64,000 nucleotides of DNA, from IMG/VR virus record IMGVR_UViG_3300035498_000844, positions 1 through 64,000 of that record. One strand, given 5' to 3'. The position numbers and the translations under genes were made by a program. The notes beneath the pieces are model-generated. The model was not told the origin of the DNA. It did no database searches and saw nothing but the letters and a program-made list of their open reading frames with translations. The stretch's first letter is position 1. The number at the start of each line of letters is the position of its first letter. The stretch is from a virus. Its lineage: Duplodnaviria > Caudoviricetes. Positions 1-4,502 of the stretch are shown one piece after another.

Positions 1-261
1 AGAAAAAAGTTTATCGTGAATTTCCCTATGGCAATTCGCACAAACCAAAATACATTTTTTTACTTCTACTAAATCTTTTTCCAAATCATGGCAAGTTCCA
101 TTAGAAGAAATACCATATAATTTTTCTTCAGCATTGATATGATGAAATTCTAAAGCTGAATTAATCTTATGATAACCACATATATTACACTGATTACCAC
201 ATACTTTAATCAAATTATCTTTTCTTCTTTTTCTATAATTACTTGTTTCTGTTGCACCCAT
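1..261 (-). CDS. HNH homing endonuclease, N-terminal part (continues off the window); lies inside a probable tRNA intron
   Basis: Not in the ORF track. ATG at 261 with GGAG SD. Translates MGATETSNYRKRRKDNLIKVCGNQCNICGYHKINSALEFHHINAEEKLYGISSNGTCHDLEKDLVEVKKCILVCANCHREIHDKLFS: CxxC..LEFHH..C.LVCANCHREIH Zn-finger HNH signature. Confidence 0.9.
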   Translation of the reverse strand, partial: MGATETSNYRKRRKDNLIKVCGNQCNICGYHKINSALEFHHINAEEKLYGISSNGTCHDLEKDLVEVKKCILVCANCHREIHDKLFS

Positions 262-364
262 ATTTTCGCTCCTTTATTTTTCATATATAATATGAAAAAT
301 AAACCAATATGGTTAATTACTGTTGTCCAATGTTCATTTATGCTACTTAACACCATTTTCGCAC
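1..364 (-). mobile_element. Probable group I intron (5' part) in a tRNA anticodon loop, carrying an HNH ORF
   Basis: P1-like helix GCUGU/AUGGU places a U33.G pair at the junction and an HNH ORF follows. The catalytic core and 3' splice site would lie outside the window. Confidence 0.6.
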
Positions 365-397
365 AGCCGCGTGCTCTACCTGTTGAGCTACTAGCCA
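365..397 (-). tRNA. tRNA 5' exon (positions 1-33), probably tRNA-Asn(GTT), interrupted by an intron
   Basis: TGGCTAG-TA-GCTC-AACAGGTA-GAGC-A-CGCGG-CT gives the acceptor 5' strand, a full D arm and the anticodon 5' stem; tRNA sequence then stops. sigmaA promoter just upstream (about 422-450). 3' exon not in the window. Confidence 0.75.
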
Positions 398-628
398 AAA
401 TTTTTATTTCTTATATTATGTATTATATCATAATTTTTTTAAAAAATCAATTTAAGACTTTTGATAAGAATTTTTTCCTAACAACTATAATAAAGACCTT
501 GGCGCAAAAACTCAACCCCCTTATTATGTAAAGGTTTCTGGTTTGAAAAATCTTTATAAGAAATAATACTACAAACCTTTTTGTTCTTATTCCTTTCTTA
601 TCATATAAATATTATATCAAAAAATTTT

Positions 629-949
629 TTAAAAATCAAATTGATTTTTATAACCATAGTGAAGAAGTAAATTTTCAATATTTTCTTTTCCAACAATATT
701 CATTGAATGACACTTAAAGCCATCAATAGAAATACCTTTTTCTACAATATACTTAGCAATATCATATCCAGATTTTTTACTTCCAAGATCATGATCTAAA
801 GAAATATATAAATCTCTAACTCCGTTCTCATGTTCAAGAGTATAAATTGCTTCTTTATAATTTCTACAAATTTTTATAAGCGGAAAATATTTTTTAAATT
901 CCTTTGGACAGTCTCTCTCATCATCAACAAAAATTAACATCTTTTCCAT
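629..949 (-). CDS. Cyclic-phosphate-processing receiver-like domain protein
   Basis: LIFVDDER, ISLDHDLG, SGYDIAKYIV and HSMNIVG motifs of this stand-alone receiver family; own promoter. Confidence 0.75.
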   Translation of the reverse strand: MEKMLIFVDDERDCPKEFKKYFPLIKICRNYKEAIYTLEHENGVRDLYISLDHDLGSKKSGYDIAKYIVEKGISIDGFKCHSMNIVGKENIENLLLHYGYKNQFDF

Positions 950-1020
950 AACAGAATATTTTTCCTTTCTTTATATAAATATTATATAATAATTTTTATA
1001 TAAAATCAAAGGGAAAAAAT

Positions 1021-1512
1021 CTATTTAAATTGATGATCTTGGATTTGCAATTTACATCCTTTAACTCGCCTACTAAAATATAAATAGTTACTCATTTCAT
1101 ATATAGTTCCATTATAACTTACAGAAGTATTACCTTCTAAAGCATATTTTGCAGCTTCTATACATGATTCAGGAAGTTCTCCATTGTCATATTTCTTTAA
1201 AGCTTTATTTAAAGCTCCATTTTTTACTGGGCTAAATTGACCCTTTTCATAAATAACATCATATACTGAATTTCTAAATTCAGTAGAATTGATTCTATTC
1301 ATTACTACAATTCCTACAGCTTGCTGTCCCGCTATACATTGATTACCAGCTTCCGCAAATATAATTGATGTCATATATCTTAAATCAGTTTCATCAAAGT
1401 GCGCGGTTTCTAACTCAGTGGTAACTTCAGTTGGGACTTCCGCAGCCATAACAGGGGTCGCCGCAATTAAACACGATATAACAATAGCTCCTAAATACTT
1501 TCTTAGTTTCAT
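1021..1512 (-). CDS. SleB-like cell wall hydrolase (Hydrolase_2) with signal peptide
   Basis: IIFAEAGNQ..GQQAVGIVVMNRINS..F.NSVYDVIYEKGQFSPV, C-terminal HQFK; hydrophobic N-terminus ending VMA. Confidence 0.9.
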   Translation of the reverse strand: MKLRKYLGAIVISCLIAATPVMAAEVPTEVTTELETAHFDETDLRYMTSIIFAEAGNQCIAGQQAVGIVVMNRINSTEFRNSVYDVIYEKGQFSPVKNGALNKALKKYDNGELPESCIEAAKYALEGNTSVSYNGTIYEMSNYLYFSRRVKGCKLQIQDHQFK

Positions 1513-1695
1513 CTGTTGTTTTCATACCTTTCTTCTTAATGTTTTGCGAAATTCTCAAAACCTATACAAGAACAAGTAGAAAATAATAAAAAGTTAATAT
1601 TTTCTATAATAGATTCCCAATAATCAGAAGGGTATCTTTCTCTAATCCAAGCTCTCTCACAACTTGAATCGCCTGTTCTAATCTCTTGTTAAATG

Positions 1696-1962
1696 CTATT
1701 TTCTTACACACCATTTGCGCCATTTTTGATACCACTCTTCAAGAGTATATTTTTCATAATAATGCGCCCATTCATAATATGTTTTTTTAGCATCTTCCCA
1801 AGTCCAAATGTACTTCCACGTATTCCAATGCTTATCATGCCGCTTATACGCGCTACCTTTTGGGATTTTCGCAAGCTTATCACGTCTAAGTTTTCTGTTT
1901 AGATAATGATAATCTTCTTTTTCTTGAATAATAAAATAATTATGCTTATAAGATCGACTCAT
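1696..1962 (-). CDS. Small basic, Trp-rich hypothetical protein (MSRSYK...)
   Basis: 88-aa ORF with AGGAGG SD. Confidence 0.75.
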   Translation of the reverse strand: MSRSYKHNYFIIQEKEDYHYLNRKLRRDKLAKIPKGSAYKRHDKHWNTWKYIWTWEDAKKTYYEWAHYYEKYTLEEWYQKWRKWCVRK

Positions 1963-2075
1963 ATATAATACCTCCTAACAAAAAGCATTACATAATAATC
2001 ATTCTCTTTTAAAAAATTTATTTTTATTTCAAAGTAAATAAATGCTTTTGTCCTTTTGTAAATAAAAATAAATAA

Positions 2076-2201
2076 TTGCTAGAGTAGGATTCGAACCTAC
2101 AATTTAGGGATTTTCCTTTTAAAAAATATAATTGCTGGATAAATCTTTTTCAAGAATCCTTTTATTTATATCCCTGCGTTTGCCAATTACGCCATCTAGC
2201 A
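2076..2201 (-). ncRNA. tRNA-like RNA with a 58-nt anticodon loop
   Basis: Acceptor TGCTAGA/TCTAGCA, D arm GCGT-AATTGGCAA-ACGC, anticodon stem GGGAT/ATCCC, T arm GTAGG-TTCGAAT-CCTAC; loop 2112-2169. Confidence 0.8.
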
Positions 2202-2203
2202 AA

Positions 2204-2291
2204 TACGAGCACTGGGATTCGAACCCAGACTATGCCTTGTGAGGGTCTTCGCTTTATAAGAACTCGGCTTTAACCATTAAGCTATGCTCGC
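2204..2291 (-). tRNA. Non-canonical tRNA, possibly Ile(TAT); weak anticodon stem and long extra arm
   Basis: Acceptor GCGAGCA/TGCTCGT, D arm GCTT-AATGGTTA-AAGC, T arm CTGGG-TTCGAAT-CCCAG; loop CTTATAA closed by only about 3 pairs. Confidence 0.65.
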
Positions 2292-2294
2292 ATA

Positions 2295-2490
2295 ATCCTA
2301 CTAAAGCTTAGCACTTTATTCTTGCAGGTAGTTTTTGATGAGAATTTCGCTCATGGAAGGTTTTTTCTTTCTACGTTCTTCGGGTTTTCAATCTACTTAT
2401 CACCTTAAACAGGGCAACCCGCTTACTAAGACCTTTCAACATAACGCGCACCGACTAGTTTAAAGACTCCATTCGGACTGTCTCTTAATT
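2295..2490 (-). ncRNA. Candidate structured ncRNA leader upstream of the tRNA pair
   Basis: Follows a sigmaA promoter (about 2510-2538); no SD-led ORF; visibly GC-richer; several helices found by eye. Confidence 0.4.
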
Positions 2491-2544
2491 TTTTATAACT
2501 TATATAAATATTATATCATAATATTTTTAAAAAATCAAAAATCT

Positions 2545-2750
2545 CTTAGTTCGGTAAGTTTTTGCTAGTCAAGAGAAAACTAATAGATTAACGCACTACA
2601 TGACGTTTGACTAATAAAATATTCATAAAACATTTTATTGTTCTGAAATTGGATACTTCACCAACAACATCCAATGCTGTATACTTATATATTCTAAGCC
2701 TATAAGCAGCTAAAACGATTTACATATTTTTATTGTAAATTCTTATTATA
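2545..2750 (-). ncRNA. Candidate multi-hairpin ncRNA
   Basis: No ORF; hairpins TTGGATG/TATCCAA, AATAAAATGTT/AATATTTTATT, TAGTCAA/TTGACTA. Confidence 0.35.
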
Positions 2751-2759
2751 TTTAAAAAA

Positions 2760-3050
2760 TTAAATAATAAAATTAACCTTTCTTGACACAGAATTTATAT
2801 ATCTTACATATTTATTGCAATCTATCTCTTTTTCCCAATAGAAAATAAGCACATCAGTATCTTTATTATAACTTACGATAGTAGCATTATACTGATTTTT
2901 TAACAAAAGAATATAGTCTGTCAATGAAATATTCAGCAATCGCGCGGGAATCCACCATTTTGCGGAAATCTCTGATAATTTTGTAACATCATTACAATAC
3001 CAGTGATCCGATCCAGATTTCCATTTGCTCACTTTATACTGATGTGCCAT
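2760..3050 (-). CDS. Hypothetical protein
   Basis: 96-aa ORF, GGAG SD, operon context. Confidence 0.75.
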   Translation of the reverse strand: MAHQYKVSKWKSGSDHWYCNDVTKLSEISAKWWIPARLLNISLTDYILLLKNQYNATIVSYNKDTDVLIFYWEKEIDCNKYVRYINSVSRKVNFII

Positions 3051-3680: not shown

Positions 3681-4502
3681 TTATTTAGAAAGATCCTTAA
3701 TCATAAGATTTTTTTCTTTTAAAACCATAGAAAGATCTTCTATAGATTTACAGATCTTGCATGGATGTCCCTTAAGACAACGCTTTCCACATCTTATACG
3801 CCATTCCGCAAAAATTGGCAAAATAAACCTACTATCTATTTCACCATCAAAGCCAATAATAACTTCTTTAAGTGGTCCAAACCATGCTTTATCAATAGCA
3901 TAAATCTTATAATAAGTTTCAATTGAATCTTCTTTTCCTAAAAACTCCATTACATCTACATATGGTTCATATGTCTCAACATCATCTGGGCGAATAAAAA
4001 ATTTCATAAGTGCAGGAGTTTTAGTCCATGAAGATTGTGCTATATTTGGAAAAACTCTAACTTGAGTTCCATATGCATGTGCGGCTTCCGCAACTTGATT
4101 TAATTCAAAACCTAGTTCTTCTACTATGTATATATCAGATACACCAAGAAAAAGAAATCCCCAAAGAGTATCCCAATTGTCAACAAAGTCACTAAAAAAA
4201 ACTTTATGTTTAATTTCACTATTATGAATTATTTCATAGACCTCTTTAGATATATAATATTCCGTCAATTTAAAAGCAAAATCTAGTTCAGGATGTTCTT
4301 TTTTTAAAGCGTTAAAAAATTTAATAGAGTTATTTTTAATAAAATCAGCTTCATCTTTGATAAAAAGATTAATTCTCTGATCTTTGTGCTCTTGCATGAA
4401 CTGAACTAAGCTAGTATCAGTTCTGTTATATACTATTGTAAGTTCACTTACTTCATTATAGTATTTATTATTTTTTCTTGTATAATTCAAACAGAATTTC
4501 AT
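3681..4502 (-). CDS. U32-peptidase-like (TrhP/RlhA superfamily-like) protein, tentative
   Basis: FFIRPDDVETYEPYVDVMEF motif and Cys-rich C-terminus CGKRCLKGHPCKIC; start moved to the SD-led ATG at 4502. The ORF is solid; the family call is recalled, not searched. Confidence 0.45.
   Translation of the reverse strand: MKFCLNYTRKNNKYYNEVSELTIVYNRTDTSLVQFMQEHKDQRINLFIKDEADFIKNNSIKFFNALKKEHPELDFAFKLTEYYISKEVYEIIHNSEIKHKVFFSDFVDNWDTLWGFLFLGVSDIYIVEELGFELNQVAEAAHAYGTQVRVFPNIAQSSWTKTPALMKFFIRPDDVETYEPYVDVMEFLGKEDSIETYYKIYAIDKAWFGPLKEVIIGFDGEIDSRFILPIFAEWRIRCGKRCLKGHPCKICKSIEDLSMVLKEKNLMIKDLSK

Follow-up and report, generated by a model that had tools for sequence, protein, structure and literature searches.

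Here, we describe a phage tRNA-Asn(GUU) gene that is broken in its anticodon loop by a mobile insert, the termini of which are predicted to fold like a tRNA and the interior of which carries the gene of an HNH homing endonuclease. Judged from sequence, the element, with its HNH gene, belongs to a class of tRNA-shaped introns in phage tRNA genes that has hardly been described. The copy that led to this work lies at the edge of the window, by which we mean the whole stretch of 64,000 nucleotides that was analyzed (G000:C1:1-64000). The window forms the start of a linear viral record of 73.8 kb. The record, 56% complete, comes from a tailed phage of ~30% G+C, with terminase, portal and sigma-factor genes present. 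Its contig begins at base 1, inside the element, so the rest of the split gene, including the 3′ exon, is absent from the record; a search of the entire 73.8-kb record found the missing 3′ part nowhere else. The window thus holds a truncated but clear copy, and its relatives supply a covariation-backed model of the HNH-bearing form.

RESULTS

A tRNA-Asn gene broken between U35 and U36

Positions 397-363 of the window (minus strand) are the 5′ exon of a tRNA-Asn(GUU) gene, corresponding to tRNA positions 1-35. They read, in order, a 7-nt acceptor strand, U8 and A9, the D arm, A26, a 5-nt anticodon-stem strand, and C32, U33, G34 and U35. After base 363 the tRNA pattern ends. The nearest intact phage tRNA-Asn(GUU), that of locus L254, is identical to this exon at 32 of 35 positions. 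The insert-free anticodon arm, as predicted, occurs uninterrupted in 55 viral contigs, and an exact search of viral contigs for the tRNA 5′ half of the window gave 0 matches.

A preliminary description of this DNA had recognized the tRNA 5′ half at the start of the window, suggested that the gene is tRNA-Asn, and predicted a 3′ exon consisting of an anticodon-stem strand, a T arm and an acceptor strand ending in CUAGCCA. All three suggestions hold up. The predicted 3′ exon is found in the closest relative, L003, where its acceptor strand is perfectly complementary to the 5′ strand of the window and the anticodon-stem strands match too. With introns allowed, ARAGORN calls homologous split genes in L004-L008. 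The same description placed the break after U33, which is two bases off. In the window type, the break falls between U35 and U36 (35/36), and in loci where the insert ends in CCA only a 35/36 junction yields the anticodon GUU. The window-type junction has a one-base ambiguity at the DNA level, because U flanks both ends of the insert. In two Lys loci (L043 and L046), the junction is 34/35. Protein-spliced tRNA introns of archaea and eukaryotes, in which the splicing endonuclease cuts a bulge-helix-bulge motif, canonically lie at 37/38, and not at 34/35 or 35/36; moreover, the insert junction is, by inspection, a 7-bp stem plus T arm rather than two 3-nt bulges around a 4-bp helix.

Complete relatives and their host tRNAs

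Relatives were found in syntenic phages by HNH protein searches, and 15 complete elements were checked by hand. A loose structural scan returned hundreds of chance matches in AT-rich DNA; the work relies solely on a strict filter and on the loci checked by hand. The complete inserts are 616-847 nt long in these 15 loci, and the length of the window insert is estimated at ~740 nt. The host gene is tRNA-Asn(GUU) in L003, L004, L006, L007, L008, L047, L096, L115, L117 and L118; tRNA-Lys(UUU) in L043, L046 and L049; tRNA-Gly(UCC) for a second element of L006; and tRNA-Ile(GAU) in L124. Inserts that lack the ORF also exist, one of 70 nt in an Asp-like tRNA of L039 and another of 92 nt in the tRNA-Thr(UGU) of L008. 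In L003 and L004/L005, the HNH ORF comprises 205 codons and the tRNA 3′ half lies ~25 nt past its stop.

In every locus, removal of the insert restores a 7-nt anticodon loop, with boundaries set by the inner fold alone. The window itself contains only the 5′ exon and the 5′ part of the insert, so loop restoration is seen in the 15 relatives. The outer anticodon stem is fully paired across the insert in 13 of the 15 complete loci, with sequences that differ from locus to locus, and the outer acceptor strands pair as well. Most of the outer tRNAs are intact even though the HNH proteins have diverged to ~46-50% identity. Some copies look decayed: L003 has three outer acceptor mismatches, L047 a broken outer anticodon stem, and L118 only 5 of 7 inner pairs. 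In one phage genome, G001 (93% complete), the split gene is the sole tRNA-Asn. Another, G002, has split Asn and Lys genes, plus a split Gly gene recovered by our own scan, and no intact copy of any of these three isoacceptors was found in the 60 kb scanned. Among GenBank phages, no record carries the element at the DNA level; the HNH protein finds its best GenBank matches, 35% identical, in Lak phages, whose copy of the gene stands free.

Two of the loci hold other unusual tRNA genes. In L124, the tRNA gene next downstream of the split tRNA-Ile (the region from ~1875 up to the end of the contig) is likewise interrupted after its anticodon-loop U, and this second interruption starts like a tRNA-shaped insert before the contig breaks off. 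In L008, positions 3776-3900 contain a T arm, a 3′ acceptor strand and CCA, followed at once by a complementary 5′ acceptor strand and a D arm. This order resembles that of a circularly permuted tRNA, and the region has a weak Rfam YrlA match (33.5 bits). The same tRNA array contains a RAGATH-33 match (135 bits) and a sub-threshold match to twister-P1.

The insert is shaped like a tRNA

By all appearances, the insert mimics a tRNA, with termini that pair into a 7-bp acceptor-like stem beside a T-arm-like hairpin, followed by a discriminator base with or without CCA. In all 15 loci, the 7 nt that open the insert form base pairs with a 7-nt strand close to its end. Across loci, two bases, UA in most cases, come after the 5′ strand of this inner stem and lead to a hairpin of 4 bp whose short loop is rich in A. 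At the other end, the 3′ strand is preceded by a T-arm-like hairpin of 5 bp, with a loop of 7 nt that in most loci agrees with the T-loop consensus. One discriminator base then closes the insert, joined by CCA in 7 of the 15 ORF-bearing loci and in both mini-inserts, and the exon resumes. The HNH gene and its leader occupy the place of the inner anticodon arm, and the HNH stop codon sits in the 5′ strand of the T-arm-like hairpin. In the window, the 5′ strand of the inner acceptor-like stem lies at 356..362 (minus strand) and is identical to that of L003; its 3′ partner would lie beyond the contig end, and the 3′ strand of the inner stem is therefore seen in relatives alone. Next come (340..355, minus strand) UG at tRNA positions 8-9 (355-354) and a D-like hairpin (353-340) with a 4-bp stem and a short A-rich loop, the hairpin again identical to that of L003. 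The uppermost position of the inner stem is a G-A mismatch in the window-type insert, which counts against the splicing scheme discussed below.

Covariation was assessed on an alignment (A2) of the 15 whole inserts, with 500 shuffles and with partners slid by 1-3 columns as controls. The inner structure has 95.4% of its cells paired, versus 68.4 ± 2.2% in the shuffles, none of which (0/500) reached as high a value. When the 3′ partners are slid by 1-3 columns, 40-52% of cells pair. Changes on both sides are seen in 12 of the 16 inner pairs. In the acceptor-like helix (helix 1), 7 of 7 pairs have changed on both sides, 92% of cells are paired, and each pair occurs as 3 to 6 standard pair types; in the D-like helix (helix 2), 100% of cells are paired and 3 of 4 pairs have changed on both sides. 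Cognate inner strands pair at 6.5 of 7 positions, compared to 3.3 for non-cognate strands. These patterns indicate that the inner fold is under selection.

For the natural 70-nt ORF-less element of L039, the minimum free energy fold is a cloverleaf inside a cloverleaf (z -3.5). The tRNA-Thr mini-insert of L008 has a minimum free energy fold without the nested form (z -0.05). In a construct made for folding only, in which the 5′ part of the window was combined with the 3′ part of L003, the outer acceptor, D, anticodon and T helices form, as does the inner stem. Because ORF-less versions exist, the fold would not be mere packaging for a nuclease mRNA. A 29-bit Rfam tRNA match in L004 (3604-3677) was considered as a separate gene and rejected, since it consists of the 3′ exon together with the T-like arm, which is taken for a D arm.

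The HNH gene and its leader

Positions 1..261 of the window (minus strand) encode the first 87 codons of the HNH homing-endonuclease gene, which runs off the contig at base 1 with no in-frame stop in the fragment; the full gene of the relatives has ~205 codons. The ORF has HNH signatures. Against the Pfam HNH model, the 87 residues score 20.7 bits (E 4.6e-4), just under the cut-off of 21.4, and a full-length homologue matches PHROG 2255 at E 7e-20. The fragment is 95-97% identical to the proteins of L003-L005. In the HNH protein alignment, the Cys and His columns are invariant, consistent with membership in PHROG 2255 and with an HNH motif that has zinc-binding cysteines. An HNH ORF inside the insert had been noted in the preliminary description and is indeed present, starting at 261. 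Its start lies 101 nt into the insert, and not 103 nt as given there, because the break follows U35 instead of U33.

The leader of the HNH gene (262..339, minus strand) includes a conserved motif (335-320), a hairpin (299-277) and a ribosome-binding site (275-269). The motif at 335-320 also precedes free-standing relatives of the gene (L119 and L120). It resembles the last 6-8 HNH codons before the T-like arm (L003-L117), forming a direct repeat of ~15 nt. This repeat of leader and ORF end could be a scar of the entry of a nuclease cassette into a tRNA-like shell, or the remnant of an earlier copy. The HNH ORFs of L006, L007 and L008 contain in-frame TAG codons at sites that encode Gln in relatives, and G002 encodes, at 100-160 kb, a tRNA whose anticodon is CUA. 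Several host phages of the element use TAG-to-Gln recoding.

The insert is mobile

Copies of window positions 1-455 in L003 and L004/L005 are 93-94% identical to it, whereas the flanking genes are only ~72% identical. Because the insert is so much better conserved between these phages than its flanks, it is mobile, as had been proposed at the outset for an insert with an HNH homing-endonuclease gene. Nearly the same insert is also found in different tRNA-Asn alleles (L006 versus L122; L003 versus L004). Taken together, the identity gap and the sharing of an insert among tRNA-Asn alleles fit a homing element. Genes of the same HNH family stand free beside intact tRNA-Asn genes in L119, L120 and Lak-A2, and since these relatives adjoin intact tRNA-Asn genes, the family appears to target tRNA-Asn DNA.

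RNA ligases and transcripts

Several phages with split tRNAs encode RNA ligases. G001 has a 405-residue Rnl5-type protein (PF09414 and PF21189, with a PHA02142 OB fold and an RNA_ligase domain), whose best solved match is NgrRnl, the Naegleria RNA ligase (5COT, E 9e-25). An Rnl5-type ligase is also present in G005, G006 (the L003 record) and G007; weak matches to this type are seen in G002 and G004; and G003 encodes Rnl1. These ligase-bearing relatives are 47-100% complete. No PF09414 match was found in G008 (84% complete). In the record of the window, no RNA ligase was found by TIGR02306, PF09511 or the G001 ligase protein, which shows nothing, because that record is only 56% complete. The co-occurrence of ligases with split tRNAs may weigh in favor of splicing. 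Against this, RNA ligases that serve tRNA repair are in any case frequent in large phages that have tRNA arrays.

Four gut metatranscriptome libraries, searched as assembled contigs, hold parts of an L004-type element. No contig in these four libraries joins the exons across the L004-type insert, and two contigs cross the boundary between insert and 3′ exon unspliced. In one 187-nt contig, a different tRNA 5′ half directly adjoins a 3′ exon and a downstream flank that are ~90% like L004. This contig represents either an insert-free allele or spliced RNA of a related phage.

Surroundings of the split gene

About 25 nt upstream of the split tRNA lies a promoter-like site (422..450, minus strand), with TTGATT, a 17-nt spacing and TATAAT with TG (10 of 12 consensus matches). 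The motif is also present before other tRNA genes of related phages, where it is seen as repeated short matches, and the site is a putative promoter of the split gene. A second copy of the motif occurs at 639-611 (minus strand), followed by ~160 nt without an ORF before the putative tRNA promoter; the fold of the region 451-639 (minus strand) is no better than that of shuffles (z -1.2). Directly upstream of the split tRNA, at 629-949 (minus strand), is a cREC_REC gene (PF20274, E 1.5e-22), which keeps the same place next to the split tRNA in L004. Pfam searches with ten ORFs neighboring the split tRNA were uninformative.

At 2076-2201, on the same strand, a tRNA-like gene matches the Rfam tRNA model at 43.7 bits. 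Its acceptor, D and T arms are normal, and its anticodon arm has ~60 extra nucleotides that lack the tRNA-shaped ends of the HNH element. This extra sequence may represent either an elongated stem or an insert of a different type. Beside it, at 2204-2291 (minus strand), is a 90-nt tRNA (Rfam, 48.9 bits), called by ARAGORN as Ile with anticodon UAU, in which the anticodon stem pairs poorly and 17-19 additional nucleotides follow the anticodon arm.

DISCUSSION

On balance, the insert is probably cut out by tRNA-trimming enzymes and the tRNA rejoined by an RNA ligase, making the element a spliced intron; we hold this at slightly better than even confidence. More tentatively, and at somewhat below even confidence, we suggest that it exemplifies a ribozyme-free form of bacterial and phage tRNA splicing, in which RNase P and a 3′ tRNA endonuclease would excise the insert and a ligase of the Rnl5 or Rnl1 type would seal the exons, the window holding an HNH-bearing variant. 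What RNase P and RNase Z recognize is a T arm with an acceptor stem stacked on it, then a discriminator that may or may not be extended by CCA. ATP-dependent T4 Rnl1 seals breaks in anticodon loops and Rnl5 is a nick sealer, with 3′-OH and 5′-phosphate ends as substrate. From the anatomy of the insert, its conserved fold, its precise boundaries and its mobility, we infer the following enzymatic steps. The whole split gene would be transcribed from its own promoter. RNase P would cut at the 5′ end of the inner acceptor stem (predicted site 363/362), so that the 5′ exon ends in a 3′-OH. The cut past the inner discriminator or CCA would be made by RNase Z or some other 3′ tRNA endonuclease and would give the 3′ exon a 5′-phosphate. 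The outer tRNA fold would keep the two halves together while a phage ligase of the Rnl5 or Rnl1 type, acting on 3′-OH and 5′-phosphate, seals the nick in the anticodon loop. The released inner RNA would serve as the HNH mRNA, and the HNH enzyme would cut insert-free tRNA-Asn genes of co-infecting phages, with repair copying the insert in (homing).

The preliminary description took the insert for a self-splicing group I intron with an intron-encoded HNH endonuclease. There are grounds for that view: like cyanobacterial tRNA introns, the insert sits in a tRNA anticodon loop and has an ORF for an endonuclease; in the Asn cases, the last base of the 5′ exon is U; and a weak fold-back can be drawn beside the break. 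The 5 pairs (3 of them G-U) of this proposed P1 do exist in the letters but are not conserved in relatives. Its bases belong instead to the acceptor-like and D-like stems of the insert, and covary with the far end of the insert. Rfam 15 group I models have no match in the first 3 kb of the window (1-3000, E ≤ 10), in six related loci (L003-L008, E ≤ 1), or in an 841-nt slice with one complete element (L004 2850-3690, E ≤ 10). A terminal G is lacking, as inserts end in U or CCA and never in G, and the 5′ exon ends in C in tRNA-Gly (L006) and in A in tRNA-Ile (L124). The non-coding part of the insert (~101 nt plus ~25 nt, ~126 nt) is too short for P3-P9, and the ORF-less relatives of 70-92 nt cannot hold a catalytic core. 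As far as sequence can tell, the group I reading is refuted, and we regard it as extremely improbable. Another route would have a small ribozyme or a phage endonuclease act at the junction of outer anticodon stem and inner stem, perhaps leaving cyclic-phosphate ends for cREC processing and joining of the RtcB type. In many bacteria, RNase Z does not usually cut after CCA. Where the insert ends in CCA, the cut must fall after it, which is a point against the RNase Z route and in favor of this other one. The cREC gene directly upstream in the window also fits, since the authors who described the domain propose that it processes cyclic-phosphate RNA ends and link it to RNA ligases in phages (PMC7824862). 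Nonetheless, no Rfam group II or small-ribozyme match lies inside the element, even at permissive thresholds, and no known self-cleaving ribozyme family matches there; the conserved fold is exactly the acceptor and T-arm unit read by RNase P and RNase Z; and the ligases found are of the 3′-OH/5′-phosphate type. For these reasons we consider this other route quite unlikely.

A weightier alternative, which we nonetheless think unlikely, is that the insertion is selfish and kills the tRNA. The HNH cassette would then occupy a phage tRNA gene that is dispensable, its tRNA-like ends would serve only to release the HNH mRNA from the transcript of the tRNA array through RNase P and RNase Z and to stabilize it, and the halves would never be rejoined. 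Free-standing HNH relatives sit between tRNA genes, where tRNA processing would free their mRNA, and the split tRNAs of L003, L047 and L118 look decayed. Additionally, phage tRNA sets are partial, such that the loss of one tRNA may be tolerated, and if the insert homes again and again into intact genes, the halves could look intact even with no selection for a functional tRNA. What this explanation accounts for less well is that the ORF-less versions of 70-92 nt keep the fold and boundaries yet have no mRNA to release, and that the insert boundaries always restore the 7-nt loop. Most outer tRNAs remain intact despite the divergence of the inserts to ~46-50% protein identity; G002 would hold three dead tRNA genes, with no intact isoacceptor copy in the 60 kb scanned; and a ligase of matching chemistry co-occurs. 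We thus lean toward excision followed by ligation as the fate of the transcript.

To our knowledge, textbook tRNA introns of bacteria and phages are self-splicing group I ribozymes, protein-dependent tRNA splicing belonging to archaea and eukaryotes. If the halves are indeed rejoined, tRNA splicing would have a third mode, which on confirmation would constitute a new pathway. Phage RNA ligases would gain a programmed role beyond damage repair, and the maturation of such tRNAs would depend on the phage's own RNA-repair kit. Elements of this kind would also account for tRNA genes of large gut and rumen phages that now escape gene finders or are annotated as broken.

Several known systems share features with the element. 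Group I introns sit in the anticodon loops of bacterial tRNA genes, including cyanobacterial tRNA-Leu(UAA) and tRNA-fMet and Azoarcus tRNA-Ile, and some have endonuclease ORFs. Like these, the insert described here occupies the anticodon loop, places a mobile endonuclease in an intron loop, and leaves a host gene that is usable only after removal of the RNA. Unlike them, it lacks a catalytic core, does not obey the U-G/terminal-G rule, and has no Rfam match. Being a predicted tRNA mimic, it would need proteins or RNase P for its removal, as opposed to self-splicing. Free-standing HNH homing endonucleases are found in phage tRNA clusters, among them F-TflI, F-TflII and F-TflIV of T5, with SegB of T4 as a GIY-YIG analogue. 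Free-standing HNH enzymes of PHROG 2255 belong to the same protein family as ours, and close relatives lie between tRNA genes, next to tRNA-Asn; the HNH gene of the window, by contrast, is inside a tRNA gene and wrapped in what is predicted to be tRNA-shaped RNA.

Mitochondrial tRNA punctuation, plant t-elements, mascRNA and bacterial YrlA are tRNA-like processing signals, in which a mimic of acceptor and T arm draws RNase P and RNase Z to a longer RNA, as we suggest for the insert. We know of none that lies within the anticodon loop of a genuine tRNA, a position at which cutting has to be followed by ligation if the product is to work. In T4 Rnl1/Pnkp repair and with Rnl5 enzymes (NgrRnl and DraRnl), as in the scheme favored here, a phage ligase joins 3′-OH and 5′-phosphate in the anticodon loop of a folded tRNA; those systems, however, are known for repair of damage by host nucleases, and not for programmed splicing. 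In the literature, as far as it could be searched and with incomplete coverage, we found no HNH-bearing tRNA-shaped introns, no RNase P-dependent tRNA splicing, and no route that combines RNase P, RNase Z and a ligase.

The closest precedent is in the Lak megaphages. Devoto et al. 2019 reported tRNA introns in these phages that they called "enigmatic", with no match to an Rfam family and no mechanism, and remarked that the intron of tRNA-Thr(TGT) "itself may encode a tRNA" (PMC6784885). As in our phages, these are tRNA inserts without Rfam match, and the 92-nt insert in the tRNA-Thr(UGU) of L008 is likewise tRNA-like. The Lak introns are short and ORF-less (PMC6784885), whereas the window insert, at ~740 nt, has an HNH gene in place of the inner anticodon arm. 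Lak-A2 has a homologous HNH gene as well, which stands free after an intact tRNA-Asn gene; in the window, the HNH gene lies inside the tRNA gene itself.
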